From positions 3,528 through 67,527 of the forward strand of contig JAAYDE010000004.1 in the NCBI GenBank assembly GCA_012729375.1: a DNA stretch of 64,000 nt, in the 5' to 3' direction. Source of the stretch: Deltaproteobacteria bacterium (GTDB lineage Bacteria; Desulfobacterota; Desulfuromonadia; Desulfuromonadales; JAAYDE01). Position 1 is the stretch's first letter, and every line of letters begins with the position of its first letter. Below, piece by piece: positions 10,703 through 63,870 of this stretch. The notes under the pieces were generated by a model, which saw only the letters and a program-made list of their open reading frames with translations, did no database searches and had not been told where the DNA came from. The position numbers and the translations under genes are program-made.

Positions 10703-10761
10703 ACTTTGTTATCTATTTTTCAGCCTGGCAAAACGGGTCAGGTCGTTTGAAGGGGGAATGG

Positions 10762-14629: not shown

Positions 14630-14648
14630 ACCAACCCGGGTGAGGCGC

Positions 14649-14984: not shown

Positions 14985-15229
14985 GCCGGTTCCTCCGCTG
15001 ATGGTGTCCAATGATTTTCAACGTCCATGAAAAACCAAATTTTTATAAACATAACACAGTTTATTCCCGGCGGGCGGAAAACCTGTCATCTGTGGACGCC
15101 GCGAAAGTCAAGATTTTGGCTTTCGCGACCCGGATTGCGGGTTCGCCAAAGCGCCGGCCGGGACCCAAGCGATTTCCCATGATAAAACGGCTTCATGAAA
15201 ACCCAGGGCGCCGTTTTAAAGCCGTTCTC

Positions 15230-25099: not shown

Positions 25100-25162
25100 T
25101 TGTCACTTGTCACTTGTCACTTGTCACTTGTCACTTGTCACTTGTCACTTGTCACTTGTCAC
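25100..25162 (+). repeat. Perfect tandem heptanucleotide array (TTGTCAC)x9
   Basis: Nine uninterrupted copies, counted directly. Confidence 0.95.
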
Positions 25163-25170
25163 TGTTTTTC

Positions 25171-25212
25171 TACCAGCTACCAGCTACCAGTTACCAGTTA
25201 CCAGTTACCAGT
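25171..25212 (+). repeat. Tandem heptanucleotide array (TACCAGC)x2 (TACCAGT)x4
   Basis: Six copies, counted directly. Separated from the first array by TGTTTTTC. Confidence 0.95.
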
Positions 25213-25258
25213 TACTGTTCCCTGACATGCCCCATTTTTCGTGGGTTGAAAATTCACC

Positions 25259-31698: not shown

Positions 31699-31845
31699 GG
31701 GGTGGCTTTCAAAAGGATGAATTTTTCAAAGGGCGCCAAGGAGCGATTACTTTTCAATGGGTAAGCGGAAAACAAAACGATAGTGGCTGGGCATAAAGAG
31801 AGTTTTTTCGTTATGGTAAAACGCTGCGGAATTCACTCCAACGGC

Positions 31846-31883
31846 AACCGGCAAGAAGAAGTGGACCCTTCTTCTTGCCGGTT
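31846..31883 (-). promoter_or_regulatory. 16-bp perfect stem-loop between the opgG/D-like gene and the GH94 gene
   Basis: AACCGGCAAGAAGAAG-TGGACC-CTTCTTCTTGCCGGTT, 30 nt downstream of the upstream stop codon. No U-tract on the transcribed (-) strand. Confidence 0.5.
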
Positions 31884-31913
31884 TATCTCATAGTGGTTTT
31901 GCGTTTGCCGCGG

Positions 31914-39377: not shown

Positions 39378-39474
39378 GGTGACTGGTGATCGGAGGTTGG
39401 TTATGTATCTGATTTTACTAGTCACCAGTCACCAGTCACCAGTTTCCAGTTATCAATCACTAGTCACCACTTGT
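39378..39474. repeat. Intergenic element C (complement arm GGTGACTGGTGAT facing seven forward heptads)
   Basis: Heptads TAGTCAC CAGTCAC CAGTCAC CAGTTTC CAGTTAT CAATCAC TAGTCAC at 39419-39467. The left arm at 39378-39390 is complementary to the CAGTCAC units. Confidence 0.85.
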
Positions 39475-43943: not shown

Positions 43944-45284
43944 ATGACAACAAAGATTCAGGAGTTTCTTGAAGCCGTCGTTCGCAAGAATCCCGGGGAG
44001 ATCGAATTTCACCAGGCAGTTACCGAGGTTGTCGAATCGGTCATGCCGTTCATTGAAGAGAATCCCAAGTATGAGGAAGCCCGCATCCTGAAAAGGATGG
44101 TGGAGCCGGAGCGGGTGATCATCTTCCGCGTTCCCTGGGTCACCGACAAAGGAGAGATCAAGGTCAACCGCGGTTTCCGCGTCGAAATGAACAGTGCCCT
44201 GGGACCTTACAAGGGGGGGCTGCGCTTCCATTCCAACGTCAACCTGGGCACCCTGAAGTTCCTCGCCTTTGAACAGATTTTCAAAAACAGCCTGACCAGC
44301 CTGCCGATGGGCGGTGGCAAGGGGGGGTCCGATTTCAGTCCCAAGGGCAAAACCGACAACGAGGTGATGCGTTTCTGCCAGAGTTTCATGACCGAATTGC
44401 AGCGCCATATCGGGCCGGATACCGACGTTCCCGCCGGAGACATCGGCGTCGGTGCGCGGGAGATCGGCTACCTGTTCGGCCAGTACAAACGGATTCGCAA
44501 CGAGTTCACCGGTGTGCTCACCGGCAAGGGGCTGAACTGGGGGGGCAGCCGGATCCGCCCCGAAGCGACCGGTTACGGCTGCGTCTATTTCGTTGAAGAG
44601 ATGATGAAGACCCACGACGACTCGCTCCAGGGCAAGGTCTGCACCGTTTCCGGTTCCGGCAATGTCGCTCAGTACACCGTCCAGAAGCTGATCCAGCTTG
44701 GCGCCAAGGTGGTCACCGTTTCCGACACCCAGGGCTATGTGTACGACAAGGACGGTATCGACCAGGAGAAACTGGATTACATCCTGGTCCTGAAAAACAT
44801 CCGCCGCGGCCGGATTCGGGAGTACGCCGAGAAATTCAAATGTGAATTCCATGAGCACCAGCGCCCTTGGGGGGTTCCCTGCGACGCGGCCTTTCCCAGC
44901 GCCTATCAGAACGAACTGAACGGCGACGATGCCCGCAAGCTGGTGGCCAACGGCTGCCGGGCCGTCGGCGAGGGGGCCAACATGCCGACCACCCCCGAGG
45001 GGGTGCGGGTGTTTCTCAACGGCAAGGTGCTTTTTGGTCCGGGCAAGGCGGCCAACGCCGGCGGCGTGGCCACCTCGGGCTTGGAGATGAGCCAGAACAG
45101 CATGCGCCTTTCCTGGCCGATGGAGGAAGTCGACCGGCGCCTACATGAAATCATGATCGCCATCCACAAGAACTGCGTGAAATACGGGCGGGATGCGGAT
45201 GGTTTCGTCAACTACGTGAAAGGGGCCAACATCGCCGGCTTCATCCGCGTAGCCGACGCCATGATCGACCAGGGGCTGGTTTAA
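43944..45284 (+). CDS. gdhA: NADP-specific glutamate dehydrogenase
   Basis: 446 aa. LPMGGGKGGSDF catalytic-Lys motif and Rossmann VSGSGNVA. Confidence 0.95.
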   Translation: MTTKIQEFLEAVVRKNPGEIEFHQAVTEVVESVMPFIEENPKYEEARILKRMVEPERVIIFRVPWVTDKGEIKVNRGFRVEMNSALGPYKGGLRFHSNVNLGTLKFLAFEQIFKNSLTSLPMGGGKGGSDFSPKGKTDNEVMRFCQSFMTELQRHIGPDTDVPAGDIGVGAREIGYLFGQYKRIRNEFTGVLTGKGLNWGGSRIRPEATGYGCVYFVEEMMKTHDDSLQGKVCTVSGSGNVAQYTVQKLIQLGAKVVTVSDTQGYVYDKDGIDQEKLDYILVLKNIRRGRIREYAEKFKCEFHEHQRPWGVPCDAAFPSAYQNELNGDDARKLVANGCRAVGEGANMPTTPEGVRVFLNGKVLFGPGKAANAGGVATSGLEMSQNSMRLSWPMEEVDRRLHEIMIAIHKNCVKYGRDADGFVNYVKGANIAGFIRVADAMIDQGLV

Positions 45285-45309: not shown

Positions 45310-45333
45310 AAGGCCGCGGCATGCCGCGGCCTT
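45310..45333. terminator. Hairpin shared by convergent gdhA and gcvPB
   Basis: AAGGCCGCGGC-AT-GCCGCGGCCTT (10-bp GC stem after opening the inner pair). Weakly T-rich on both sides. Confidence 0.7.
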
Positions 45334-45359: not shown

Positions 45360-46823
45360 TTACGGGTTTTCATGGCGCCAGCGCAGGCGCGGCTTGCGCG
45401 CCGCCAGCACCTCGTCGAGACGGCGGACGAGGGTGCGCCGCGGTGCCTCCTTGAGCAGCTCGGGGGAACTCCGCGCCTCTTCGGCGATGCGCACCATGGC
45501 CGCGCAAAACTCGTCCAGGCTCTCCTTGGTTTCCGTCTCCGTCGGCTCGATCATCAGCGCCCCCTTGATTACCAGGGGGAAATAGACCGTCGGTGGATGG
45601 AAGCCCAGGTCGATGAGCCGCTTGGCCACATCGAGGGTGTGGCAGTCTCCCGGCAGGTGCTGATCGGAAAAGACCACCTCGTGCAGGGAGCGTTCCGTGT
45701 GGGGCAGATGGAAGTGCCCTTCGAGGCGGCTGCGGATGTAGTTGGCGTTGAGCACCGCCATTTCCGTGGCCTGGCGCAGCCCGGCGGCACCGAGCATGCG
45801 GATGTAGGTGTAGGCGCGGACGAGAACGGCGAAGTTCCCGTAAAAGGCGCGCAGCCGGCCGATGGAGTCGGGGCGCTCACGATCGAAACGGTAACCGTCG
45901 CCGTCGCGGACGATGCGCGGCCGGGGCAGGAAGGGCTCCAGCTCTTTGGTGACGCCGATGGGGCCGGCGCCGGGGCCGCCGCCGCCATGGGGGGTGGAAA
46001 AGGTCTTGTGAAGGTTGAAATGCATGACGTCGATGCCGGCGTCCCCCGGCCTGGAGATGCCGAGGAGGGCGTTGAGGTTGGCGCCGTCGCAATAGACCAG
46101 CCCTCCCTTGGCGTGGACCGCTGTGCAGATGGCGGCGAGCTCTTTTTCAAAGAGGCCCAGGGTATTGGGGTTGGTGATCATGATCGCCGCCGTCTCTTCA
46201 TCCATGGCCGCGGCGACGGTGGCCGCGCTCAGGCAGCCGTTGGAGGCCAGCGGGGTCACCTCGTAGCCGCAGAGGGCCGCCGAGGCGGGATTGGTGCCGT
46301 GGGCGGTGTCGGGGATCAGCACCTTGCGGCGCGGGTTGCCGCGCTTCTCGTGGCTGGCGCGGATCACCATCATGCCGGTCAGCTCGCCGTGGGCGCCGGC
46401 CGCCGGATGGAGGCAGACGGCCGGAAACCCGCTGATCTCGCCGAGGAGTTCCTCCAGATGATGAATCAGCGCCAGTGCCCCCTGGCTGAGATCCTCGGAA
46501 GTGTAGGGGTGCAGCAGGGCAAAGCCGCCGATGCGTGCCGCCGCCTCGTTGACCTTGGGATTGTACTTCATGGTGCAGCTGCCCAGGGGGTAGAAGCCCG
46601 AGTCGACCCCGTAGTTCCAGGAAGAGAGGCGGGTGAAGTGGCGTACCACCTCCACTTCCGAAACCTCGGGAAAGCCTTCGATATCGTCCCGCGCCAGTTC
46701 CGCGGGGAGTTGCGCCCCGGGCACGTCTAATTCCGGCAGACGGCAGCCGCCGCGTCCGGGGCGGGAATGTTCGAAAATCAGTTTTTCGCGCAGCGCCAGG
46801 CCGCCGGTTCCCACTTCGTTCAT
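45360..46823 (-). CDS. gcvPB: Glycine dehydrogenase (aminomethyl-transferring) subunit 2
   Basis: 487 aa. PLP-lysine block HFNLHKTFSTPHGGGGPG. Start overlaps the gcvPA stop (ATGA). Confidence 0.95.
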   Translation of the reverse strand: MNEVGTGGLALREKLIFEHSRPGRGGCRLPELDVPGAQLPAELARDDIEGFPEVSEVEVVRHFTRLSSWNYGVDSGFYPLGSCTMKYNPKVNEAAARIGGFALLHPYTSEDLSQGALALIHHLEELLGEISGFPAVCLHPAAGAHGELTGMMVIRASHEKRGNPRRKVLIPDTAHGTNPASAALCGYEVTPLASNGCLSAATVAAAMDEETAAIMITNPNTLGLFEKELAAICTAVHAKGGLVYCDGANLNALLGISRPGDAGIDVMHFNLHKTFSTPHGGGGPGAGPIGVTKELEPFLPRPRIVRDGDGYRFDRERPDSIGRLRAFYGNFAVLVRAYTYIRMLGAAGLRQATEMAVLNANYIRSRLEGHFHLPHTERSLHEVVFSDQHLPGDCHTLDVAKRLIDLGFHPPTVYFPLVIKGALMIEPTETETKESLDEFCAAMVRIAEEARSSPELLKEAPRRTLVRRLDEVLAARKPRLRWRHENP

Positions 46824-48169
46824 GATTCACCTCCGGCCAGGGCGGCGATCAGGGTGTCGATCTCCTGGCGGCTGTTTTCTTCGGTGACGCATACCAGCAG
46901 GCGGTTTTCCTGCTCCGGGAAGAAACGCGCCAGGGGAATCCCCGCCAGGATCCCTTTTTCCTGCAGCCGCTTCAGGAGCAGTGCAGCAGTTTCCGGCGCC
47001 TCGACGACGAACTCGTTGAAGGTCGGCGCCGCGTAGGGAAGGGAATAGCCCGGCAGGGCGGCGATCCCTTTCTTGGCGTATTCCGCTTTGGAGTGGTTGT
47101 GGATGGCGACCCGGCGCAGCCCTTCTTTGCCCATCAGGGAGAGGTAGACGGCGGCGGTCAGGGCGCAGAGGCCGTGGTTGGAGCAGATGTTGGAGGTGGC
47201 CTTTTCGCGGCGGATGTGCTGTTCCCGGGTGGAAAGGGTCAAAACGAAGCCGCGCTGTCCCTCCTGGTCGACGGTTTCGCCGACGAGGCGGCCGGGGACG
47301 GAGCGCAGGTCTTTGTCGCGGACGGCGAAAAAGCCGCAGTGGGGGCCGCCGAAAGCGGGCGCAATGCCGAAACTCTGCACGTCGCCGACGACCATGTCGG
47401 CGCCGAAGTCTCCCGGCGGTTTGAGAAGAGCCAGGGAGAGGGCTTCGGCGACGGCGACGATCAGTTTGGCTCCCTTTTCGTGGACTGCGGCGGCAAAGGC
47501 GGCCAGATCCTCGATGGCGCCGAAGAAATTGGGGGAGCCGATGAGGACGGCGGCGGTCTGATCATCCGCCAGCGTCTCCAGCGCCGCCGCCTCGCTCCGC
47601 CCGGAGCTGCCCAGGGAAAGCGTTGCCACCTCGAGATCAAGGAAGCGGCAATAGCAATCCACCGTCTCCCGGTATTCGGGATGAAGGCCCGCCGCCACCA
47701 GGATTTTTTTGCGCTTAGTCAGGCGCGCCGCCATCAGGGCCGCCTCGGCCGCCGCCGAGGCGCCGTCGTACATGGAGGCGTTGGCCGCCTCCATGCCGGT
47801 CAACTGGCAGATCATCGTCTGGAACTCGAAGATGGCCTGCAGGGTTCCCTGGCTGATTTCCGCCTGATAGGGGGTGTAGGCGGTGGCAAACTCGCCCCTG
47901 GAAACCAAATAGTCGACCGCGGCAGGGGTGAAATGGCGGTAGGCTCCGCCGCCCAGAAAGGAGATGTGGGTGGCGGAGGTGGCGTTGGCCGCCGCCAGCC
48001 TTTCCAGCTCGCGGAGGATTTCCGGTTCGGAAACCGGCGGCGGCAGTGCGAGGGGACGGTTGAGGCGCAGCTTTTCGGGGATGCCGGAGAAAAGCGCTGC
48101 CGTCGACGGGACGCCGATGGCAGTGAGCATGCGCCGGACATCATCTGGGGTATGGGGGGTGAAGGTCAT
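46820..48169 (-). CDS. gcvPA: Glycine dehydrogenase (aminomethyl-transferring) subunit 1
   Basis: ATG at 48169 (MTFTPHTPDDVRRMLTAIG) matches the usual GcvPA N-terminus. The track ORF extends to 48202. Confidence 0.95.
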   Translation of the reverse strand: MTFTPHTPDDVRRMLTAIGVPSTAALFSGIPEKLRLNRPLALPPPVSEPEILRELERLAAANATSATHISFLGGGAYRHFTPAAVDYLVSRGEFATAYTPYQAEISQGTLQAIFEFQTMICQLTGMEAANASMYDGASAAAEAALMAARLTKRKKILVAAGLHPEYRETVDCYCRFLDLEVATLSLGSSGRSEAAALETLADDQTAAVLIGSPNFFGAIEDLAAFAAAVHEKGAKLIVAVAEALSLALLKPPGDFGADMVVGDVQSFGIAPAFGGPHCGFFAVRDKDLRSVPGRLVGETVDQEGQRGFVLTLSTREQHIRREKATSNICSNHGLCALTAAVYLSLMGKEGLRRVAIHNHSKAEYAKKGIAALPGYSLPYAAPTFNEFVVEAPETAALLLKRLQEKGILAGIPLARFFPEQENRLLVCVTEENSRQEIDTLIAALAGGES

Positions 48170-48194
48170 GTTTATATTCTCAAAGGATGAATGC

Positions 48195-48274
48195 GGTGAC
48201 AAACAGCAAGTGACGAGTGACGGGTTTTTTATTTTTATGATCTTAACTCGTTGCTCGTCGCTAAAAGTTGTCGG
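48195..48274. repeat. Intergenic element D (imperfect inverted heptad arms) filling the gcvH-gcvPA spacer
   Basis: Left arm GGTGACAAACAGCAAGTGACGAGTGACGGG, AT-rich loop, right arm AACTCGTTGCTCGTCGCTAAAAGTTGTCGG. About 10/13 complementary over the GTGACGAGTGACG core. Confidence 0.7.
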
Positions 48275-48664
48275 TTACTGATCCTCGTTTTCCAGGAACT
48301 CCCGGTAAGCGTCGGCGTCCATCAGTTCGTCGAGCTGAGAGGGGTCGTCGGGGCGAATCTTGACCATCCAGCCGTCGTCGTAGGGGGAGGTGTTGATGAC
48401 TTCGGGAGCGTCGGGAAGCTCTTCGTTGACCTCCTCGATGGTGCCGCTGATCGGGGCGTAGACGTCGGAAACGGCTTTGACCGATTCGACCACCGCAAAG
48501 GCCTTGCCGGCGAAAACCTGGGTGCCGACCTCCGGCAACTCGACGAATACGATGTCCCCCAGGGATTCCTGGGCATGGTCGGTGATGCCGACGGTGCACA
48601 GGTCGTCTTCGGCCAGCACCCACTCATGATCTTCGGTATACTTCAATTCTTCGGGAAATTCCAT
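48275..48664 (-). CDS. gcvH: Glycine cleavage system H protein
   Basis: Lipoyl-lysine motif [13 protein letters not shown] at 48664 ([16 protein letters not shown]). Confidence 0.95.
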
Positions 48665-48744
48665 GGTCAGCTCCTGTCGGTCAGTGTCGTTCAAGGGACA
48701 TGCGCCACGCTGGAGTTCACGGCTTTCGAGCCGCTTCCGTTGCC

Positions 48745-49842
48745 CTAGCGCGGGGGATAAAAGGGGGGCTTGATGATCAGCGCTGATCGCTTGCGCCCGT
48801 GGATGTCGATTTTCAGTCGTTGTCCCGGCTTCCAGGAGCCGGCCGCCACCAGGGCGATGGCGATGCCCTGGCGCAAAGAGGGGGAAAGGGTGCCGCTGGT
48901 GACCGTGCCGATGGGGCGGTCGCCGTCGTAGACAAGATATTTTTCCCTGGGGATGCCGGCTTCTTCCATCTGCAGACAGACCAGCTGGCGGGGGATGCCG
49001 TTGCGTTTGAGCTCCTCCAGGGCGGCTTTTCCGTTGAAATCGGCTTTGTCGAACTTCACCACCCAGGCAAGGCCGGCCTCCAGGGGGGTGATATCGGCAC
49101 TCAGTTCATGGCCGTAAAGGGCGTATTTCTTTTCCAGGCGCAAGGTATCGCGGGCGCCCAGGCCGACGGGCAGAAGACCCTGATCCTGCCCTGCGTCCAT
49201 CAGGGCGTTCCACACCGCCGCCGTCTCGTTGGCCGGCAGGTAGAGCTCGAAACCGTCCTCTCCGGTGTAGCCGGTGCGCGAGATCAGGGCGCACACCCCG
49301 GCGACCTTTTCCTCCACGAAATGGAAGGAAGGAAGGCCGGCGAGGCCGGCGCCGGTGATTTTGCCGAGAATGGCCCCGGCAGCGGGACCCTGAAGGGCGA
49401 GCAGGCCGTATTCGTCGCTCAAATTGGCCAATTGGACGTCAAATCCCTTTTCCGCGGCGATGGTTTCCATCCACGCGAAGTCCTCGTCGCAGCGGGAGGC
49501 ATTGACACAGAACAAATACTCTCCGTTGCCAACCCGGTAGAGGGTGGTGTCGTCCACGGTGCCGCCGTTGGGATAGCAGATGATGGTGTACTGGACCTGT
49601 CCCGGCGTCAGTTGAGAGGCGTCGTTGGTGGTCAGATACTGGATGAAGGCAAGGGCCTGGAAGCCCGTCACCCGGATCTGGCCCATATGGGAAACATCGA
49701 AAAGCCCCGCTTTACGACGCACGGCCAGATGTTCCTCGATAACCCCCGTCGGGTAGTTGACGGGCATCTCCCAGCCGGCGAAGGGGACCATCTTCGCCCC
49801 CAGCAGGCGGTGGATTCCATGGAGCGCTGTCTTCTTCAGCAT
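48745..49842 (-). CDS. gcvT: Glycine cleavage system aminomethyltransferase T
   Basis: ATG at 49842 ([30 protein letters not shown]) preceded by GAGGAGG. Confidence 0.95.
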
Positions 49843-49883
49843 GGCCGGTACCTCCTCACTCTCCACTGACGTTGGTAAAGTGT

Positions 49884-50756
49884 TTAGCACTGCTTTGGGG
49901 AATTGGCAAGAATCTCCGGAATACGTTTTTCCTGGCCCAGGGTCATGAGATGGACCCCCTGGCAGCAGGTACGGGCGAAGCGGACCAGCTCGCCGGCGAT
50001 GGCGACGCCTTCTTCCGTGGGATCAGCGGCTTTTTCGAGTCTTTCAATGATTGTTTGGGGAACCCGCACGCCGGGAATGTTGGCGTTGAGAAAACGGCAC
50101 ATGCGGGCGCTTTTGAGCAGAAGAACGCCTGCCAATACCGGCACGCCGAGAGGGGCGGCGGCGTCCATGAAGCGCGCCAGTTTGGCGGTGTCGAAGATGG
50201 CCTGGGTCTGAAAAAAGCGCGCCCCCGCCAGCACCTTTTTGCGGAATTTGTGGAACATCAGCTCGAAGGGCTCTCCTTCCGGCACGGCCGCCGCGCCGGG
50301 GAAAAAAAAGGGGGCCCGGCTCAGGGGCTTGCCGGCCATGTCGAAACCGCCGTTGAGGCCTTTCACCACTTTCAGAAGGTGGATGGAGTCGAGGTCGAAG
50401 ACGGGACGGGACTGCGGGTGATCGCCGAAGGAGGGATGATCCCCGGAGAGCAGCAGCAGGTTTTCGATGCCGAGCAGGGAGGCGCCGAGGAGTTCCGACT
50501 GCAGCGCCATGCGGTTGCGGTCGCGGCAGGTGAGCTGCAGAACCGGTTCGCAGCCGGCGCGGGCCAGAACGGCGGCCACCGCCACCGGACTGGTGCGCAT
50601 GTTGGCCCCCTGGTTATCGGTGACGTTGACGGCCGTCACGCCCTTCAGAGCGGCGGCCTGTTCCAGAATGACGTCGAGGCCGACTCCCTTGGGCGGGGCG
50701 ATTTCGGCGGTAACGACGAAGCGGCCCAAGGCCAGCTGTTCACTTAAACGGGACAT
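49884..50756 (-). CDS. metF: Methylenetetrahydrofolate reductase, acetogen-type MetF subunit
   Basis: ATG at 50756 (MSRLSEQLALGRFVVTAEIAPPKG), 290 aa. The upstream part of the track ORF merely reads through heptad repeats. Confidence 0.9.
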   Translation of the reverse strand: MSRLSEQLALGRFVVTAEIAPPKGVGLDVILEQAAALKGVTAVNVTDNQGANMRTSPVAVAAVLARAGCEPVLQLTCRDRNRMALQSELLGASLLGIENLLLLSGDHPSFGDHPQSRPVFDLDSIHLLKVVKGLNGGFDMAGKPLSRAPFFFPGAAAVPEGEPFELMFHKFRKKVLAGARFFQTQAIFDTAKLARFMDAAAPLGVPVLAGVLLLKSARMCRFLNANIPGVRVPQTIIERLEKAADPTEEGVAIAGELVRFARTCCQGVHLMTLGQEKRIPEILANSPKQC

Positions 50757-50804
50757 TTGATCGATTCCTGGTCCAGCCTCATGGGTCAAAGGAAGTAGGG
50801 TTCT

Positions 50805-50960
50805 GTGACTGGTGACTGGTGGCTGGTGATTGGTGACTGGTAAAAACAACGCATGGCTCGTAGCTCGTGGTTTGTAAAAAGCCGGTGACGAGGGACAAGT
50901 AACGAATAACTAATTAAAATCAAAAGGCAAAAATCCGGCACTTGTCACTCGTCACCAGCC
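50805..50960. repeat. Intergenic element E ((GTGAYTG)x5 array, GGCTCGTAGCTCGTGG module, 17-bp inverted repeat) in the metV-metF spacer
   Basis: GTGACTG GTGACTG GTGGCTG GTGATTG GTGACTG at 50805-50839. TCGTAGCTCGT at 50858-50868. GGTGACGAGGGACAAGT (50884-50900) versus ACTTGTCACTCGTCACC (50940-50956), 16/17 complementary with a 39-nt AT-rich loop. Confidence 0.9.
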
Positions 50961-51605
50961 TTATTTGACCTTCAGTTCCCCGGGGGGCTGTTTTTTACGC
51001 CAGTCCTTGGCCGGGACGGTGCGGGTGAAGATATCCTGCCGCCCTTGTTTTTTGAGGTTTTCGTAGATAAGGTGCCAGGCGCAGTCGAGTTCCCGGTCGA
51101 CCTCGCATTTGCCATCCTCCATGCCGCCGCAGGGGCCGTTGAGGAGTCCCTTGGCACAGAGGGTGACGGGGCAGATGCCGCCGGTTTCATTGAGCAGGCA
51201 GGTGCCGCACAGGGAGCACTTTTCGGCGAATTGCCCGTTGCGCAGGGTGTTGCCCAAAAACAGGGTATCCAGCGCCCCGATCACCCTTCGGCCCGATTTG
51301 AGGACCACCGAATGAACGCCGGCGCCGCAGGCCAGGACCATGACGGCGTCCGCTTCCTCCACCTGAACGCGGTGGTCGCGCAGATCGCGGGCGGTGCGGT
51401 TGACGTTGCAGGGGCTGTCGATGATGACGCTGCCGGTGACCCTTTTGCCGAGGGTGGTCAGCCATTCCTCCATGCGGAAAACCTCTTCCTCGCCCCCGGA
51501 TTTGCAGACGGTGGCGCAGGCCGAGCAGCCGACAAGAAAAAGGCTGTCCAGTCCCTCCAGAAGAGCGGCCATTTCTTCGCGGTTTTTCTGTTTGCTGACG
51601 ATCAT
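50961..51605 (-). CDS. metV: MetV-like Cys-rich small subunit (methylene-THF reductase C-terminal domain protein)
   Basis: 214 aa. Cys clusters VGCSACATVCKSGG, CSLCGTCLLNETGGICPVTLCAKGLLNGPCGG. Confidence 0.8.
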   Translation of the reverse strand: MIVSKQKNREEMAALLEGLDSLFLVGCSACATVCKSGGEEEVFRMEEWLTTLGKRVTGSVIIDSPCNVNRTARDLRDHRVQVEEADAVMVLACGAGVHSVVLKSGRRVIGALDTLFLGNTLRNGQFAEKCSLCGTCLLNETGGICPVTLCAKGLLNGPCGGMEDGKCEVDRELDCAWHLIYENLKKQGRQDIFTRTVPAKDWRKKQPPGELKVK

Positions 51606-51648
51606 GGGAACTCTTTTTTAAGTGACAAGGCGGGCGGGCCGCCAAAAA

Positions 51649-52500
51649 TCAGCCTTGCAGGCGCCGTTTGCTGCTCTCCACCGTGTTGGCCAGCAGCATG
51701 GTGATGGTCATCGGGCCGACGCCTCCCGGCACCGGGGTGATGGCCGAGGCGCGCCGGCAAGCGGCGGCGAAGTCCACATCGCCGACCAGTTTGTTGCCTT
51801 CGATGCGGTTGATGCCGACGTCGATGACCACCGCCCCCTCTTTGATCCATTCCCCCTTGATCATCTGCGCCTTGCCCACGGCGGCGATGACCACGTCGCC
51901 CTGGACGACCCGCCGGGGCAGGTCGCGGGTGCGGGAGTGGCAGATGGTGACGGTGGCATGGCGGGCCAGGCACATCAGGGCGACCGGCTTGCCGACGATG
52001 TTGGAGCGGCCGACGACGACCACCTCCTTGCCGGTGAGGTCGACTCCGGTTTCATCCAGCAGCTTCATGATGCCGTAGGGGGTGCACGGCTGAAAGAGGG
52101 GATTGCCGGCGGCCAGGCGCCCGAAATTGTAGGGATGGAAACCGTCCACATCCTTGCGGGGGTCGATCGATTCGATGACCCGGGCGGTGTCGATCTGCTT
52201 GGGCAGGGGCAGTTGGACGAGGATGCCGTCGATGCGTTCGTCCCGGTTGAGCCGGTCGATGAGGGCCAGCAGCTCCGCTTCGGAGGTGTCTTCCGGGAGT
52301 TGGCGTTCCTGGGAGTAGATTCCCGCCTTCTGGCAGGCCTTCTCCTTCATGCTGACATAGGTGCGGCTGGCGGGGTCGTCGCCGACCAGAACCACCGCCA
52401 GGCCGGGAACGGCGTCCCGTTGGGCCAAAGCGGCGGCGTCTGCGGCGATGGTTTTGCGGAGCTTTTCGGAAATGGCTTTTCCGTCGATGATAGCGGCCAT
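51649..52500 (-). CDS. folD: Bifunctional methylene-THF dehydrogenase / methenyl-THF cyclohydrolase
   Basis: ATG at 52500 ([15 protein letters not shown]) preceded by GAAAGGAG. Motifs [10 protein letters not shown] and [10 protein letters not shown]. Confidence 0.95.
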
Positions 52501-52590
52501 GGGCGCTCCTTTCACGGCAAAACGGCGCTTTCGAGTGAGCAGCGCCGCCGGTTTGCATGTCCCGATTTCTGCAGGCTGGAAACGACCCTC

Positions 52591-52619
52591 AATATAACGC
52601 CTAAATTTCAAGCTGACAA
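52591..52619 (-). promoter_or_regulatory. Sigma-70-type promoter candidate for the folD-metVF-gcv operon
   Basis: On the - strand: TTGTCA (52619-52614), 17-nt spacer, TATATT (52596-52591), about 90 nt upstream of the folD ATG. Confidence 0.5.
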
Positions 52620-52789
52620 CTGACTAAGTTCCATTTGCTTTGTTGTCCGTCCCTTTGCCGGGGCAAAGCGGGGAAAGGGGCCGGGTACGGGTTTCACACG
52701 AAACGGAAGGCGCGCAGCACCGTTGGGGAAGAAAAGTTTTTGAAGCAGGGGGGGGGGAAGGGGTCGCGGGGAAAGGGCGGGGGCAGGAT

Positions 52790-53155
52790 TTACCTGGCCG
52801 CCCCCAGCTTTTCCCGGTGTTCCTCTTCTTCTTTGCAGTCGATGCAGAGGGTAGTGACGGGGCGTGCCCGCAGGCGTTCCAGGCCGATGGACTCACCGCA
52901 AGACTCGCAGATACCGAATTCCCCGTGGTCGATCCGTTCCAGGGCTTCGCGGATCTTGCCGATCAGCTTGCGTTCCCGCTCGCGGATGCGCAGTTCGAAG
53001 TTGCGGTCCGATTCCATGCTGGCGCGGTCGGTGGGATCGGCGAAGGCGGCCTTCTGGTCGGTCATCTCGTTGACCGTTTTCCCCGCCTCGCTGAGCAGTT
53101 CCTCCATCTGCCGAAGAAGGAGGTTGCGGAATTCCTGCAATTGGGTTTCGTTCAT
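52790..53155 (-). CDS. dksA: DksA/TraR-family C4 zinc-finger RNA polymerase-binding regulator
   Basis: ATG at 53155 (MNETQLQEF). Coiled-coil region with DxxDxA (FADPTDRAS) and CESCGESIGLERLRARPVTTLCIDC. Confidence 0.9.
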   Translation of the reverse strand: MNETQLQEFRNLLLRQMEELLSEAGKTVNEMTDQKAAFADPTDRASMESDRNFELRIRERERKLIGKIREALERIDHGEFGICESCGESIGLERLRARPVTTLCIDCKEEEEHREKLGAAR

Positions 53156-53247
53156 GTCGTTTCCTCGATGAAAAATTGATTGAAGTTTATGACAAAACAT
53201 CACAAAGAGTCAATCTTTGTCGAAAGCGGAATATCAGGCTGCCAGCA

Positions 53248-53772
53248 TCAGGAGAGCAGGGGTTGGATCTGCAGGAAAATGCCGACGCCGAGAATCCCCG
53301 CCATCAGCCAGAGGGTGAAGATGCTGCCATGGTGGAGAGGCGGATTCTCCGCCAGGGGCGGAATATCCTCGCCGATGGCCGCGGCGGGCAGGCGTTGGAT
53401 GAGGGTATGGATGAGATCCTTCAGATCCCCGTAGGCATTGCTGAAAAGGAGGTAGTTTTCGGCCGAGGAGAGGGCGAAAAAGACCCGTTTTCTCATTCGG
53501 GTGGCGTCGAAGCGCAGGATCTCTTCGAAGGAGAGGGTTTTGGCGCCGTAGAGGCGCCGCTGGGTAATTCCCCTGTCGTCAATGCGCAGGCGCCGGGAAA
53601 GGATGTTGATGGTCAGAAAAGTAAACAGCAGGGCGAGAAGGGCCGGGATGAAGAGGCGGCCGGGCGGCTCTCCCTGGTGCCAGGAAGTCCCCAGCAGACC
53701 CAGGGCCATCAGGGTACAGACCAGGTGGGGAACGATCAGCGCGGTGCGGATACGGTACTCTTTGGGTTTCAT
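53248..53772 (-). CDS. Hypothetical membrane protein (two N-terminal and one or two C-terminal spans around a small soluble, possibly PH-like, segment)
   Basis: 174-aa ORF with clear hydrophobic spans. No motif that I can name. Confidence 0.5.
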   Translation of the reverse strand: MKPKEYRIRTALIVPHLVCTLMALGLLGTSWHQGEPPGRLFIPALLALLFTFLTINILSRRLRIDDRGITQRRLYGAKTLSFEEILRFDATRMRKRVFFALSSAENYLLFSNAYGDLKDLIHTLIQRLPAAAIGEDIPPLAENPPLHHGSIFTLWLMAGILGVGIFLQIQPLLS

Positions 53773-55683: not shown

Positions 55684-57075
55684 ATGCTTGATAAGTCGAT
55701 CATCCGGAAACTGGAAAAAATCGTCGGCCGCGAGAATATGACCACCGAGAAATCGGATCTGATCTGCTACGCCTTCGATGCCACCCAACAGCGCTTTCTT
55801 CCCGACGTCGCCCTCTACCCGCAAAGCGCCGCGGAGATCAGTGACATCCTGAAACTCGCCAACGCCGAAAAAATACCCGTGGTGCCCCGCGGCTCCGGCA
55901 GCGGATTTTCCGGCGGCAGCCTGCCCACCATGGGCGGCATCGCCCTGGTGCTGCGGCGCATGGACAAAATCCTCGAGATCGACGAGGAGAACATGCTGGC
56001 CGTCGTCGAGCCCGGCGTGGTGACCGAGGTCTTCCAGCAGGCGGTGGAAGCCAGGGGACTTTTCTATCCCCCCGACCCGGCCTCGCTCAAGTTCAGTTCC
56101 CTCGGCGGCAACGTCGCCGAGTGCGCCGGCGGCCCCCGCTGCGTCAAGTACGGGGTGACCCGTGACTACATCCTCGGCCTCGAGGTCGTCACCCCCCAGG
56201 GCGACATCATCCACACCGGCGGCCGCACCATGAAAGGGGTGGTCGGTTACGACCTGACCCGGCTCATGGTCGGCAGCGAAGGGACCCTCGGCGTGGTGAC
56301 CAAGATCATCATCAAGCTTTTGCCCCTGCCGGCGGCCAAGAAGACCATGCTCGTCGTTTTCGATTCGATCCGCGGCGCCAGCCAGGCGGTCTCCGACATC
56401 ATCCTCGGCCGCATCATTCCCACCACCCTCGAGTTCATGGATTCCACCAGCATCGACGTGGTGCGCAACGCCACCAATCTGTCGATTCCGGAAAGGGCAC
56501 GGGCGATCCTCATCATCGAGGTGGACGGCGATGAGGAGCTGCTGGAGAAGCAGGCCGAGAGGATTCTTGAGATCGTCGCTCCCTTCGGCGTCGTGGAAAC
56601 CCGCGTCGCCAAAGACAAGGCCGAGAGCGACGACATCTGGAAGCTGCGCCGCAGCATTTCCCCCAGTCTGCGCCAGGTCAATCCCAACAAGTTCAACGAG
56701 GACATCTGCGTGCCGCGCAGCAAAATCCCCGACATGATCCTCGAATTGGAGCGGATTTCCCGGGAGGTCGGAGTGCCGATCATCAATTTCGGCCACGCCG
56801 GCGACGGCAACATCCACGTCAACGTCATGGTCGACTTGGCCGAAGAGGGGATGCAGGAGAAAGTCGACCGGGCCCTGGAGGAGATCTTCCGCGCCACCCT
56901 CAAGCTGGGCGGAACGATCAGCGGCGAGCACGGCATCGGCACCACCAAGGCCCCCTACCTGGGCATGGAACTGAACGATCCGACCATCCAATACATGTGG
57001 ATTATCAAGAAGGCCCTCGACCCGAACAACATCCTCAACCCCGGCAAGATTTTCGGGTTTTCCGGAAACGAGTGA
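55684..57075 (+). CDS. glcD: FAD-linked oxidase, glycolate oxidase GlcD / D-lactate dehydrogenase-like
   Basis: 463 aa. FAD_binding_4 block VVPRGSGSGFSGGS and C-terminal GEHGIG. Confidence 0.85.
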   Translation: MLDKSIIRKLEKIVGRENMTTEKSDLICYAFDATQQRFLPDVALYPQSAAEISDILKLANAEKIPVVPRGSGSGFSGGSLPTMGGIALVLRRMDKILEIDEENMLAVVEPGVVTEVFQQAVEARGLFYPPDPASLKFSSLGGNVAECAGGPRCVKYGVTRDYILGLEVVTPQGDIIHTGGRTMKGVVGYDLTRLMVGSEGTLGVVTKIIIKLLPLPAAKKTMLVVFDSIRGASQAVSDIILGRIIPTTLEFMDSTSIDVVRNATNLSIPERARAILIIEVDGDEELLEKQAERILEIVAPFGVVETRVAKDKAESDDIWKLRRSISPSLRQVNPNKFNEDICVPRSKIPDMILELERISREVGVPIINFGHAGDGNIHVNVMVDLAEEGMQEKVDRALEEIFRATLKLGGTISGEHGIGTTKAPYLGMELNDPTIQYMWIIKKALDPNNILNPGKIFGFSGNE

Positions 57076-57082
57076 CGACACC

Positions 57083-58363
57083 ATGGCGGAACTGAAAAAG
57101 CAGCCTGAACTCAAGGATTACGCGGAGCAGATCAAACAGTGCGTCAAGTGCGGCACCTGCCACGCCTACTGCCCGATCTTCGACCAGGAGCGCAAGGAGC
57201 CCCTGGTGGCGCGGGGCAAGGTCGCCCTCGCCCAATCCCTGCTCAACAAGGAAACGGAGATCGACGCCCGCTTCATGGAGAACCTCTCCAAGTGTCTGCT
57301 GTGCGGATCCTGCTCCGACAAATGCCCCAACCTGGTGCCGGTGGAGGAGATCGTCGCCGCCTCGCGGCGCGAGATCGCCCGCCGCAAGGGGTTGTCCCTC
57401 TTCGGCTTCGGGCTCTCCACCACCCTCAAGCACCCCAGGCTGATGAAGCTGATGGCCAGAATGGGCAACCTCTTCTCCTGGCTGGTGTTCCGCAAGGTGC
57501 CGGAGAAGAGCGGCCTGCGGCTGCGCTTCCCCGCCCCCTACATCCGCGGCGACCGCACCATTCCCAAGGTGGCTCCGCGGTTTCTGCGGGACGCCCACCC
57601 GGAATTCATCCCCGGCGAGCCGGGCAAGCCGACGGTGGCTTTCTTCACCGGCTGCATGGCCAATTTCATGTATCCCCACATCGGCGATGCCGCCATCGAC
57701 GCCCTGAAGCTCCTCGGAATGAACATCCGCATTCCGCAAAACCAGGGATGCTGCGGGGTGCCGGCCCTTTCCTCGGGGGACGGCGCCACTGTGGACGAGC
57801 TGACGAAACGCAATTTTGACGCTTTCGCCGCCGTGGACGCCGATTATATCGTCACCGTCTGCGCCTCCTGCAACTTCGGGTTGCGCACCAACCTGGGCAA
57901 GACCGGCGCGGAAGGGGAGAGCCTCGCCGGCAAGGTGATCGATATCCACCGCTTTCTCAACGAACAGGGGATCGGCGCCAAGCTCGCCGCCCTGCCGCCC
58001 CGGGAGAAAAAGGTTCGCGTCACTTATCACGACCCCTGCCATCTGCGCAACCAGGGGATCACTAAGGAGCCCCGGGAAATTCTCAGAGCCCTGCCCGGGG
58101 TCGATTTCGTCGAGATGCGCAACGCCGACCAGTGCTGTGGCCTGGGCGGCACCTTCTCCGTCTATCATTACGACATGAGCGTCAAGATCGGCGCCAAAAA
58201 GGCGGCCGCGATCCGCGACAGCGGCACCGAGGTGGTGGCCACTGCCTGTCCCGGCTGCATGATGCAGCTGCTCGACTCCATCAACCACGCCGGCCTTGCC
58301 CACCGCGTCTGCCACGTGCTGGAACTGGTGGCCGCCGAACTGCCACCCGCCAATCAAAAATAA
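57083..58363 (+). CDS. glcF: Fe-S subunit with two [4Fe-4S] motifs and two CCG domains (GlcF-like)
   Basis: CVKCGTCHAYCP and CLLCGSCSDKCP. CCG motifs GCCGVPA and QCCGLGG. Confidence 0.85.
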   Translation: MAELKKQPELKDYAEQIKQCVKCGTCHAYCPIFDQERKEPLVARGKVALAQSLLNKETEIDARFMENLSKCLLCGSCSDKCPNLVPVEEIVAASRREIARRKGLSLFGFGLSTTLKHPRLMKLMARMGNLFSWLVFRKVPEKSGLRLRFPAPYIRGDRTIPKVAPRFLRDAHPEFIPGEPGKPTVAFFTGCMANFMYPHIGDAAIDALKLLGMNIRIPQNQGCCGVPALSSGDGATVDELTKRNFDAFAAVDADYIVTVCASCNFGLRTNLGKTGAEGESLAGKVIDIHRFLNEQGIGAKLAALPPREKKVRVTYHDPCHLRNQGITKEPREILRALPGVDFVEMRNADQCCGLGGTFSVYHYDMSVKIGAKKAAAIRDSGTEVVATACPGCMMQLLDSINHAGLAHRVCHVLELVAAELPPANQK

Positions 58364-59345: not shown

Positions 59346-60382
59346 GGGACGTTGTTTATTTGTTGACTAACCCTCTCTTTCTCATTATATTTTGTTCATG
59401 CCAAGAACCGCCCGCCTTGATCTGCCCAACCTTTTACAGCACGTCATAGCCCGTGGCGTCGATCGTTGCGATATTTTCCGGGATGATGCCGACCGCCAAC
59501 GCTTTCTCCTGAGTTTTTCCGGTCTTTTGGTTGATACTGGCACCCAGTGTTTCGCCTGGTCCCTGATGCCCAACCATTTCCATCTCCTCCTTCGCCCCCG
59601 GAATCGTCTGGCGCCCTTCATGCGCCGGCTTCTCACCGGCTATGCCGTCTATTTCAATCTCCGTCACAACCGTTCCGGTCATCTGTTCCAGAACCGCTAT
59701 AAATCGTTGGTCTGTGAAGAAGATTCCTACCTGCTGGAACTGATCCGCTACATTCACCTCAATCCTTTGCGCGCCGGGTTGGTGAAAGATCTCGTCGCTC
59801 TGGATCATTACCCCTGGTCCGGCCATGCGGTCATCCTTGGGAAAAGATTACTGGAAGGCCAAACTCCGGCGGAAATCCTGTCCCTGTTTTCCCAGAAAAA
59901 GGCTGAGGCGAGACAGCATTATCGAGCCTTTGTGGAGGACGGGATCCCCCAAGGAAAGCGGGAGAATCCGGGCGGCGGAAGAAAAAAGACGGGCAGGATT
60001 GAGCCAACAGAAAAGGATGATGTGCTGTATGACGACAGGGTTTTGGGGAGTGGGGCTTTTGTCGAGAACCTGAGAAAGCGCCAGGAATTTGCAGCCGAAT
60101 TCCCCCGGACTCTGGAGATTTCCGATATCATTTCCCGGGTGTGCCGCCATTTTGCCATCGATCCGGCGGATTTGCTGCAGAAAAGGCGTACGGAGAAACT
60201 CGCGGCGGCGCGGAGCGTCATCTGTTATCTGGCGGTCCGTCAAGAGGGGTACAACGGCGTGGAGGTCGGACGCCGGGTGAATCTTGGTCGTTCCGGCGTC
60301 TGTGTGGCCGCCGACCGAGGAGAGAAAATGGCAAAGGGGGAGCCGGCGCTGTTGAAGTTGGTGAACGAATAAACAACGTCCC
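59346..60382 (+). mobile_element. Single-gene unit: Y1 (HUH) transposase-like gene bracketed by 13-bp perfect inverted repeats
   Basis: GGGACGTTGTTTA at 59346-59358 and TAAACAACGTCCC at 60370-60382 (exact reverse complements). The right repeat includes the TAA stop codon. Confidence 0.55.
59398..60372 (+). CDS. IS200/RAYT-like Y1 tyrosine transposase homologue with C-terminal DnaA-C-like helix-turn-helix domain
   Basis: HUH motif PNHFHLLL, catalytic-Tyr region GHLFQNRYKS. C-terminal RTEKLAAARSVICYLAVRQEGYNGVEVGRRVNLGRSGV resembles DnaA domain IV. ATG at 59398 (the track starts at TTG 59392). Confidence 0.75.
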   Translation: MPRTARLDLPNLLQHVIARGVDRCDIFRDDADRQRFLLSFSGLLVDTGTQCFAWSLMPNHFHLLLRPRNRLAPFMRRLLTGYAVYFNLRHNRSGHLFQNRYKSLVCEEDSYLLELIRYIHLNPLRAGLVKDLVALDHYPWSGHAVILGKRLLEGQTPAEILSLFSQKKAEARQHYRAFVEDGIPQGKRENPGGGRKKTGRIEPTEKDDVLYDDRVLGSGAFVENLRKRQEFAAEFPRTLEISDIISRVCRHFAIDPADLLQKRRTEKLAAARSVICYLAVRQEGYNGVEVGRRVNLGRSGVCVAADRGEKMAKGEPALLKLVNE

Positions 60383-62793: not shown

Positions 62794-63870
62794 ATGGCCA
62801 AGAAACTCTATGTTCCGGGACCGGTCGAGGTGCGGCCCGATGTGCTGGCGGCCATGGCGCGACCGATGATCGGCCATCGCACCAAGGAATATGCGGCGCT
62901 CCATGAGAAGGTGGTGAACCGCCTCAAAACCCTGCTCAACACCGGGGGGCGGGTCTTTCTTTCCACCTCCAGCGCTTTCGGGGTTATGGAGGGGGCGATC
63001 CGCAATCTGGTGCAGAAGCGCTGCGTCAACTTCGCCAACGGCGCCTTCGCCAAGAAGTGGCACGACGTCACCCTGCGCTGCGGCAAGGAGGCCGATGTGG
63101 TGGCCGTCGACTGGGGCCAGCCGGTCACCGCGGAGGTGGTGGATCAGGCCCTGGCCACCGGCAAATACGACGCCATGACGCTGATCCACAACGAAACCTC
63201 CACCGGCGTGATGAGCCCCTTGGCGGAGATCGCCGCGGTGATGCGCCGCTATGCCGATGTCTCCTTCATTGTCGACACCGTTTCCTCGATGAGCGCCGTT
63301 CCCCTCGATCTCGACTCCCTGGGAACCGATGTCTGCCTGGCGGGGGTTCAGAAGGCTTTCGGGCTGCCGCCGGGGCTGGCCGTCTTCGCCGTTTCCGACA
63401 AGGCCCTGGAGAAGGCCGCGGCGACGCCGGGGCGGGGTTACTACTTCGATTTTGTCGAATTCGCCAAGATGGATGAAAAACACAACACCCCCAGCACCCC
63501 CTGCCTGAGCCAGATCTTCGCCCTTGACCATCAGCTCGACAAGATGTTCGCCGAGGGGCTGGAAAACCGCTACCGGCGCCATCTGAGGATGGCCGAGGCG
63601 ACCCGCCGGTGGGTTGTCGACCAGGGTTTCACCCTGTTTCCCGATCCGGGCTGCTGTTCGGTGACCCTGACCTGTGCCCGCAACGACGGCCGCACCGATC
63701 TCGAACTGCTCAAGAAGCTGGCCGGGGACAAGGGCTACGCCATCGACAACGGCTACGGCAAGATCAAGAACGAGGCCTTCCGCATCGCCCACATGGGGGA
63801 TTTCACGATGGCGGATATGGAGGAGCTGTTCGGGTTGCTGGAGGGGCTGCTGCCGCGGGTGAGGAAGTAG
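62794..63870 (+). CDS. Class V aminotransferase (alanine/serine--glyoxylate aminotransferase family)
   Basis: 358 aa. LIHNETSTGV, FIVDTVSSM and the PLP-lysine region AGVQKAFGLPPG. Confidence 0.85.
   Translation: MAKKLYVPGPVEVRPDVLAAMARPMIGHRTKEYAALHEKVVNRLKTLLNTGGRVFLSTSSAFGVMEGAIRNLVQKRCVNFANGAFAKKWHDVTLRCGKEADVVAVDWGQPVTAEVVDQALATGKYDAMTLIHNETSTGVMSPLAEIAAVMRRYADVSFIVDTVSSMSAVPLDLDSLGTDVCLAGVQKAFGLPPGLAVFAVSDKALEKAAATPGRGYYFDFVEFAKMDEKHNTPSTPCLSQIFALDHQLDKMFAEGLENRYRRHLRMAEATRRWVVDQGFTLFPDPGCCSVTLTCARNDGRTDLELLKKLAGDKGYAIDNGYGKIKNEAFRIAHMGDFTMADMEELFGLLEGLLPRVRK

Follow-up and report, generated by a model that had tools for sequence, protein, structure and literature searches.

The folD-metVF-gcvTHP cluster and its signals

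The window analysed here, a 64,000-nucleotide (nt) stretch of contig JAAYDE010000004.1, holds on its minus strand seven co-oriented genes, folD-metV-metF-gcvT-gcvH-gcvPA-gcvPB, which place FolD and the methylene-tetrahydrofolate (methylene-THF) reductase MetVF beside the glycine cleavage system. An earlier sequence-only reading had named and placed these genes, and open reading frames (ORFs), Pfam and NCBIfam all agree with it on identities, the coordinates being those given or close to them. The genes and the signals that bound them are as follows (equivalog scores against their cut-offs).

51649-52503, minus strand: folD, 284 residues; PF00763 and PF02882; NF008058, 401 against 355
50961-51605, minus strand: metV, Cys-rich small subunit of the MetVF reductase, 214 residues; PF12225 over residues 111-203 (E = 4e-35)
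49884-50756, minus strand: metF, catalytic subunit of methylene-THF reductase, 290 residues; PF02219 (E = 1e-38)
48745-49842, minus strand: gcvT, aminomethyltransferase, 365 residues; PF01571 and PF08669; TIGR00528, 385 against 236
48275-48664, minus strand: gcvH, lipoyl carrier protein, 129 residues; PF01597; TIGR00527, 177 against 116
46820-48169, minus strand: gcvPA, glycine dehydrogenase subunit 1, 449 residues; PF02347; NF001696, 620 against 364
45360-46823, minus strand: gcvPB, glycine dehydrogenase subunit 2, 487 residues; PF21478 and PF02347; NF003346, 708 against 441
52591-52619 (read 52619-52591), minus strand: sigma-70-type promoter candidate upstream of folD, TTGTCA, 17 nt, TATATT
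45310-45333 (read 45333-45310), minus strand: intrinsic terminator, stem of 10 base pairs (bp) with 8 G-C pairs, then T-rich TCCTTTTCCT

FolD is by Pfam and NCBIfam the bifunctional methylene-THF dehydrogenase/methenyl-THF cyclohydrolase, and it exceeds its NCBIfam equivalog cut-off, as do GcvT, GcvH, GcvPA and GcvPB. The glycine cleavage system's T, H and two-subunit P proteins thus all lie above these thresholds, with the lipoyl-lysine motif VESVKAVSD present in the GcvH translation. Gene calling done separately on identical metagenome contigs arrives at these starts and lengths too, and the source contig recurs in several metagenome assemblies. Exact protein matches are found in an uncultured metagenome-assembled genome (MAG) entered as 'Deltaproteobacteria bacterium' (NLV23283 for MetV, NLV23282 for MetF and NLV23278 for GcvPB), and the operon proteins in the range NLV23278-NLV23283 are already named as such in public entries. 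The nearest genome, locus L007 of our survey, is a Desulfuromonadaceae MAG with 90% MetV identity; the close MetV relatives are all Desulfuromonadales, and by sequence the window is assigned to an uncultured Desulfuromonadaceae MAG. The cluster is made of known enzymes and is present in public genomes of cultured strains; we found no description of the seven-gene operon in the literature searched.

The promoter candidate, already proposed in the sequence-only reading, scores 10 of 12 matches and is the best of the seven promoter-like sites between 44500 and 53500, where shuffled sequences gave 1.3. It is nearly identical in L007, and in more distant relatives a conserved near-consensus CTTTACAA-N17-CGTATAGT stands at the same place upstream of folD (seen in L012, L016, L019, L047, L070, L083 and others). 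Of 68 upstream regions, 48 have the -35 heptamer CTTTACAA and 38 the -10 heptamer CGTATAGT. The motif's conservation beyond both hexamers might reflect a regulator site; a literature search for a SahR-type methionine regulator site gave no usable result. The leaders read in relatives are short, about 25-90 nt. The folD leader of the window contains, just 5' of the ribosome-binding site, an 8-bp hairpin GCGGCGCU/AGCGCCGU followed by UUUUG (52522-52548, minus strand), which is kept in L007 with one compensating change. A role for it as an attenuator was considered and set aside, the whole leader folding no better than shuffles (z = -0.2).

At the far end, the predicted terminator folds with z = -3.9, is the sole strong terminator in the scan, and is shared with the convergent NADP-glutamate dehydrogenase gene gdhA (43944-45284, plus strand). 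Searches with Rfam for glycine, THF, ZTP, S-adenosylmethionine (SAM) and S-adenosylhomocysteine riboswitches returned no family at the gathering threshold in the whole window, in line with the earlier failure to recognise a glycine riboswitch. Relaxing the search to E ≤ 5 over 48100-53300 gave only chance-level miRNA-like matches on the two hairpin regions described below, and the loci of seven relatives held no riboswitch bar an unrelated thiamine pyrophosphate element in L070.

Gene order and spacers in relatives

We surveyed one genome per species, taking 80 loci with MetV relatives at 55-90% identity and mapping the seven window proteins onto them. All seven genes stand in the same order in 37 of these loci, including that of Malonomonas rubra DSM 5091. 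In nine the locus ends at a contig edge with gcv genes following metF, and seven are partial; a further 15, mostly from Geobacteraceae, have folD-metV-metF followed by a galU-like gene and no gcv genes, and the remaining 12 are uninformative. Separate look-ups found the operon in the closed genome of D. soudanensis WTL (CP010802.1) and in Desulfuromonas sp. AOP6. Given full recurrence in 37 and partial recurrence in 16 of the 80 loci, the seven-gene arrangement, whose conservation the sequence-only reading had proposed to check, is a lineage trait and not a product of chance.

The exceptions are of several kinds. Three of the partial loci, from Desulfuromonas lineages (L014, L015 and L017), keep folD-metV-metF-gcvH but lack gcvT and gcvP over a span of 10 kb; in L015 (9086-11968), the one of the three that was read, the lipoyl-lysine motif of GcvH is intact. 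Locus L022 has gcvH-gcvPA-gcvPB without gcvT, and in the Geobacteraceae loci L059, L065, L069, L075, L083, L085 and others folD-metV-metF runs directly into a galU-like nucleotidyltransferase gene, the gcv genes being absent. MetVF is therefore the partner most tightly bound to folD, kept even where the gcv genes are gone. Geobacterales have been inferred to have lost their ancestral glycine cleavage genes and to have regained a foreign set (PMC12827605), and the synteny fits this history, with gcvTHP inside the folD-metVF operon in Desulfuromonadales and a corresponding operon without gcv in Geobacteraceae. Of Desulfuromonas sp. AOP6 and G. metallireducens, both included in the published alignment (PMC12827605), only the former resembles the window in the GcvPB motif, HFTRLSSWNYGVDSGFYP. 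Our survey places the glycine cleavage genes ancestral to Desulfuromonadia within the folD-metVF operon.

Among the recurrent flanking genes, none is a member of a formate or glycine route. Recurrent families among the 80 loci are aroG, yggT, divIVA, yggU, an aminopeptidase gene, a tonB-like gene, pta, ackA and galU, with DAHP synthase (aroG), YggT, DivIVA, YggU and the aminopeptidase upstream and the TonB-like protein, Pta and AckA downstream; these are housekeeping genes. The pathway neighbours fhs, lpd, fdh, grd, glyA and sdaA were looked for among the clustered flank ORFs of the 80 loci and are absent there, fhs and fdh are absent from the window and 82 related loci, and lpd, grd and glyA do not occur in the flanks of relatives. 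Downstream pta/ackA was considered as a hint of glycine reductase and rejected, since grd is absent, the genes lie on other strands and a tonB-like gene intervenes. The window itself, with about 48 ORFs scanned, holds no lpd, fhs, formate dehydrogenase (FDH), glycine reductase or carbon monoxide dehydrogenase/acetyl-CoA synthase (CODH/ACS) gene, the first four as the sequence-only reading had stated; nor does it hold glyA or sdaA, or a corrinoid Fe-S protein or methyltransferase to use or make methyl-THF.

The junctions from folD to gcvPB measure 43, 204, 41, 80, 105 and -4 nt, gcvPA and gcvPB overlapping by 4 nt, whereas the medians in relatives are 80, 18, 47, 62, 4.5 and -4 nt. The earlier description of short or overlapping junctions thus holds for four of them and fails for those of 204 nt (metV-metF) and 105 nt (gcvH-gcvPA), both of which hold inserted hairpin and heptamer-repeat elements. 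It is such a hairpin that makes the metV-metF spacer an outlier, against the median of 18 nt in 76 related loci. The inserted elements are:

50878-50962, minus strand: long hairpin in the metV-metF spacer, stem of about 28 bp, AT-rich loop, then UUUUU
50805-50841, minus strand: tandem heptamer array in the metV-metF spacer, CCAGTCA type, about five copies (Tandem Repeats Finder)
48211-48262, minus strand: smaller hairpin in the gcvH-gcvPA spacer, GTGACGAG-arm type, AT-rich loop, z = -2.4; arm-motif pattern match at 48209-48225

The long hairpin folds at -40.4 kcal/mol (z = -8.5) and is possibly a partial terminator or RNA-stability element, inserted in the manner of repetitive extragenic palindromic (REP) sequences. 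The hairpin-heptamer element of this spacer is also present in the metagenome copies and in L007. Among those copies, the hairpin arm adjoining the heptamer array differs between L001 and L002/L003 by exactly one heptamer, GTTACTT (spacer at about 10645-10857; 204 against 211 nt), so that the heptamer copy number is polymorphic in natural populations. In L007 the 28-nt hairpin loop (window 50910-50937) is reversed (10397-10424): it mismatches the reverse complement at 2 positions and the forward sequence at 14. In that genome the heptamer arms on either side are expanded, and the gcvH-gcvPA spacer contains the loop once more (13160-13187). The loop orientation suggests either inversion between the inverted arms or independent insertions.

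Elements with GTGACNN-type heptamers form an intergenic family in the window (50805-50962, 48211-48262, 25100-25215 and 39420-39469), as long hairpins with AT-rich loops or as tandem arrays of 5-9 copies (TTGTCAC nine times, TACCAGT six times, AGTCACC seven times), and they look like REP or short-tandem-repeat elements. An ORF at 59392-60372 (plus strand), in which an IS200-like Y1 transposase domain occurs together with a DnaA C-terminal helix-turn-helix, weakly matches a REP-associated tyrosine transposase (55 bits against a cut-off of 80); its product may be responsible for spreading the hairpin elements.

Role of the operon in one-carbon metabolism

Characterised two-subunit MetVF enzymes have a MetV with a methylene-THF reductase (MTHFR) C-terminal domain, an NGPCGG motif and Cys ligands for two [4Fe-4S] clusters, and their MetV and MetF form one complex (PMC8515935). 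In the window metV directly precedes metF on one strand. MetV carries NGPCGG, and when it is aligned with its relatives (18 sequences) 13 Cys are invariant, CxxCxxxC and CxxCxxC among them; the sequence-only reading was right to pair MetF with a Cys-rich MetV. No solved structure matches MetV by sequence. MetF falls far under the NAD(P)H-type equivalogs (TIGR00676, 80 bits against a cut-off of 294; PRK09432, 28 against 382), so that the alignment result by which the MetVF assignment might have failed did not arise, and it is distant from the solved E. coli and Thermus MetF (E = 1e-7 to 1e-13). Among NCBIfam models it agrees best with the MTHFR half of the YitJ-type bifunctional homocysteine S-methyltransferase/MTHFR (247 bits). 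It is not short, as had been claimed: its 290 residues compare with 275-310 for the solved bacterial MetF chains among the PDB matches.

The neighbours of metVF are folD, dksA and gcvT, and no hdrABC-mvhD, rnfC2 or nuoEFG module adjoins; such modules would make the enzyme a 6S, 3S or X type (PMC8515935). The window has a single CCG-domain Fe-S protein (57083-58363); its gene lies 5 kb off, on the other strand, and forms a pair with that of a GlcD-like flavoprotein. With none of these modules adjoining, MetVF is by gene content of the two-subunit (2S) type. For C. ljungdahlii MetFV the in vitro donors are reduced ferredoxin (91 U/mg), flavodoxin (22 U/mg) and thioredoxin (7.4 U/mg), so the view that the electron carrier of such enzymes is still unclear is dated, ferredoxin-dependent methylene-THF reduction having been demonstrated for clostridial enzymes only (PMC8515935). 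Compared with Moorella MetF, MetF proteins of this class score e-37 to e-73, those of Desulfobacterota with CODH/ACS e-115 to e-138 and those of Desulfovibrio e-7 to e-12 (PMC12827605).

We consider it probable that the seven genes form a housekeeping folate one-carbon operon that serves ordinary biosynthesis and neither fixes CO2 nor runs an acetogen pathway in reverse. As a single transcript reaching from the promoter upstream of folD to the terminator behind gcvPB, they would provide GcvT, GcvH and GcvPA/PB, which with Lpd encoded elsewhere would convert glycine to CO2, NH3 and 5,10-methylene-THF. FolD would oxidise part of the methylene-THF pool to 10-formyl-THF for purines and formylmethionyl-tRNA, and MetVF would reduce another part to 5-methyl-THF for methionine and SAM, the likely electron source being reduced ferredoxin from the 2-oxoacid:ferredoxin oxidoreductases of these organisms. 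It is at the methylene level that the C2 of glycine joins the folate pool and departs from it. The reductive glycine pathway leads from formate through formyl-THF and methylene-THF to glycine, and glycine oxidation via FolD, Fhs and Fdh from methylene-THF through formyl-THF and formate to CO2, with no MTHFR step in either. Both of the glycine pathways whose gene logic the sequence-only reading saw in the cluster therefore bypass MTHFR and leave MetVF unexplained. MetVF and FolD are the two ways out of the methylene-THF pool, the glycine cleavage system being its supply, and the one-carbon-pool reading is the only one that uses all seven genes.

Published genome comparisons point the same way. 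Fhs is recorded as 'No hit' by BLAST in 8 of the 11 class reference genomes, among them Geopsychrobacter and Geoalkalibacter, which do carry glycine cleavage genes (PMC12827605 Table S6); lacking Fhs, such organisms must obtain formyl-THF from methylene-THF via FolD. A complete CODH/ACS occurs only in the basal Deferrisoma camini, with AcsB and AcsD 'No hit' in the other class genomes (PMC12827605 Table S6). The class reference genomes include no known autotroph, six being entered as non-autotrophic and the others as unknown; SerA and serine hydroxymethyltransferase are present (PMC12827605). Because matches to GCSL (Lpd) occur in all 11 genomes, the L protein is probably encoded elsewhere in the genome (PMC12827605 Table S6). 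D. acetexigens shows a glycine-gene pattern opposite to that of the window organism, with all five glycine reductase subunits matched and no GcvT, GcvP or GcvH (PMC12827605 Table S6). Within our own data, the closest NCBIfam model of MetF being fused to a methionine-forming enzyme (YitJ type) favours a biosynthetic role, and the conserved near-consensus promoter, short leaders and lack of a riboswitch fit steady expression. MetVF probably serves methionine synthesis in non-acetogens such as the cultured D. soudanensis and M. rubra and the Geobacteraceae with a folD-metVF cluster.

Several points weigh against this picture. The ferredoxin donor is extrapolated from clostridial enzymes (PMC8515935). 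No regulator or riboswitch was found in the searches described above, whereas the gcv genes of E. coli and Bacillus are glycine-inducible. Where glycine abounds, as in digesters, the same genes may also allow it to be catabolised, which would make 'housekeeping only' too narrow. Finally, the -40 kcal/mol hairpin and U-run between metV and metF could split the unit in this lineage, and here the claim of one operon needs qualifying: co-orientation, one strong promoter-like site, one strong terminator and an order kept in at least 37 genomes speak for it, and the stable hairpin speaks against. If the inserted hairpin ended most transcripts, folD-metV would form one unit and metF-gcvTHP another, separately driven; the fold energy, the following U-run (seven U in L007) and the unusual width of the gap are as such a break would have them. 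We nevertheless regard this split as quite unlikely. Compared with typical intrinsic terminators, the hairpin has a much longer stem and a much larger loop (25 nt), and similar REP-like elements lie in other intergenic spacers of the window. Because no promoter-like site lies between the large hairpin and metF, and because MetV and MetF form one complex in the characterised enzymes (PMC8515935), so that uncoupling them would be costly, our reading is that the spacer hairpins would be tolerated REP-like insertions and not a true operon break.

Other fluxes through the same enzymes have to be weighed against the biosynthetic one. The organism occurs in metagenomes of the anaerobic-digester and rumen type, settings that offer amino acids; genes for NADP-glutamate dehydrogenase and threonine ammonia-lyase adjoin the operon, and FolD and the glycine cleavage genes share one predicted transcript. 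All this would suit an operon that is mainly an energy pathway, oxidising glycine to NADH and methylene-THF, with FolD taking the latter on to formyl-THF, the one-carbon unit leaving as formate or CO2 and MetVF as a passenger. We think this unlikely, since it gives no role to MetVF, the most tightly conserved partner, which Geobacteraceae keep with folD in the absence of gcv. Neither Fhs nor PurU is found in the window or the flanks of relatives, Fhs is missing from most class genomes as noted, relatives do not conserve gdhA and ilvA as neighbours, and Rfam found no glycine-sensing element in the window or the seven relatives. The opposite direction, synthesis of glycine from formate or CO2 via Fhs and FolD as in Desulfovibrio desulfuricans G11, is in our view very improbable. 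It too can point to FolD and GcvTHP in one predicted transcription unit; FDH homologues are widespread in the class, and FDH together with the glycine cleavage system has been counted as 'rGly potential' (PMC12827605). That pathway requires Fhs, which most class genomes lack, two of those genomes having glycine cleavage genes, and MTHFR is not one of its steps; fhs, fdh, lpd and grd are all missing from the window, grd, glyA and sdaA are unlinked to the operon in all loci, and the pta/ackA genes downstream in many relatives are on separate strands. The clade has no known autotroph, and autotrophy in Geobacter proceeds by reversal of the oxidative tricarboxylic acid cycle (PMC7894505).

A more unusual coupling would make the operon a redox module, in which dihydrolipoyl-GcvH passes two electrons to MetV/MetF, so that glycine and THF yield 5-methyl-THF, CO2 and NH3 without Lpd or an external carrier. 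The potentials allow it (lipoyl about -290 mV, methylene/methyl-THF about -200 mV). Lpd is encoded in none of the 80 operon loci, nor in those of D. soudanensis and AOP6, and gcvH lies directly downstream of metF where gcvT and gcvP have been lost (L014, L015 and L017). Acetogen clusters also place gcvH and lpdA beside metVF, and the dithiol protein thioredoxin feeds C. ljungdahlii MetFV (PMC8515935). Being purely inferential, the proposal strikes us as highly improbable: Lpd homologues occur in all 11 class reference genomes, retention of GcvH has a standard explanation in lipoyl relay, a mere relic of gene loss would show the metF-gcvH adjacency as well, and NADH with dihydrolipoamide dehydrogenase and lipoamide failed to support C. 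ljungdahlii MetFV (PMC8515935). Were it true, the route from glycine to methyl-THF would be redox-neutral, the missing lpd, the persistent metF-gcvH adjacency and the company of gcvH with metVF in acetogen clusters would be accounted for, and a physiological donor would be named for 2S-type MetVF outside acetogens.

MetVF beside glycine cleavage genes does not indicate Wood-Ljungdahl or reductive-glycine metabolism, which is relevant to metagenome pathway calls that score 'rGly potential' from FDH and the glycine cleavage system. The observation made in the sequence-only reading is confirmed and its pathway interpretation partly supported; what our analysis corrects is an attractive over-reading of the MetVF-gcv adjacency. 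Methionine auxotrophy might serve as an easy genetic means of finding the electron donor that two-subunit MetVF enzymes use physiologically. The practical value of the finding is modest.

The PALP-ACT neighbour is a threonine ammonia-lyase (ilvA) equivalog (627 against a cut-off of 496), and a pair at 55684-58363 (plus strand), a GlcD-like FAD oxidase and the CCG-domain Fe-S protein, resembles glycolate or D-lactate dehydrogenase. A class-V aminotransferase at 62794-63870 (plus strand) resembles glyoxylate aminotransferases. A feed from glycolate through glyoxylate to glycine and into the operon is conceivable; we set it aside, these proteins being below equivalog cut-offs and the neighbourhood not conserved. 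Further away lie a partner-switching module (14171-18511, minus strand) with a 1093-residue GAF-SpoIIE phosphatase, a STAS-domain protein and a HATPase_c_2-domain protein, and what is probably a periplasmic glucan synthesis locus (26278-33530, minus strand), where a 1806-residue protein with GH94 domains adjoins MdoG.

Comparison with known systems

The Wood-Ljungdahl cluster of C. ljungdahlii and C. autoethanogenum contains fhs, fchA, folD, metV, metF and lpdA, with gcvH beyond acs/codh, and the presence of gcvH and lpdA was explained by its authors through the common substrate methylene-THF (PMC8515935). The window shares with it the succession of folD, metV and metF and the two-subunit MetFV with NGPCGG. 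It differs in having a full gcvT-gcvH-gcvPA-gcvPB set in place of fhs, fchA, CODH/ACS and lpdA, and its hosts are respiratory acetate oxidisers without CODH/ACS.

The reductive glycine pathway of D. desulfuricans G11 uses FolD and GcvTHP(L), as found here, and D. desulfuricans also has Fhs, glycine reductase and a MetF that is only a distant match (e-12) to the MetV-partnered Moorella MetF (PMC12827605 Table S6). In the window, by contrast, Fhs and glycine reductase are unlinked to the operon, and the MTHFR it includes stands outside that pathway.

E. coli gcvTHP and B. subtilis gcvT-gcvPA-gcvPB encode the same glycine cleavage enzymes and likewise have lpd elsewhere, and their accepted role is the supply of one-carbon units and the removal of glycine. 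Both operons stand alone, regulated in E. coli by GcvA/GcvR and in Bacillus by a tandem glycine riboswitch, whereas the gcv genes of the window are joined to folD-metVF, with no riboswitch detectable.

The anabolic tetrahydrofolate cluster of Methanosarcinaceae and ANME-2 comprises metF, metV, folP, folD and glyA plus purN and is read as purely biosynthetic (PMC9012536). MetVF, which the sequence-only reading had linked to Wood-Ljungdahl organisms, is no diagnostic mark of them: it occurs in such clusters too, in Methanosarcina and ANME-2. There, as here, MetF, MetV and FolD are grouped with an enzyme that loads methylene-THF, which provides a precedent for an anabolic reading of the seven-gene operon (PMC9012536). 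The two arrangements differ in that folP and purN belong to the archaeal cluster only, and in the source of methylene-THF, which is serine hydroxymethyltransferase (GlyA) in the archaea and would be the glycine cleavage system in the Desulfuromonadales operon.

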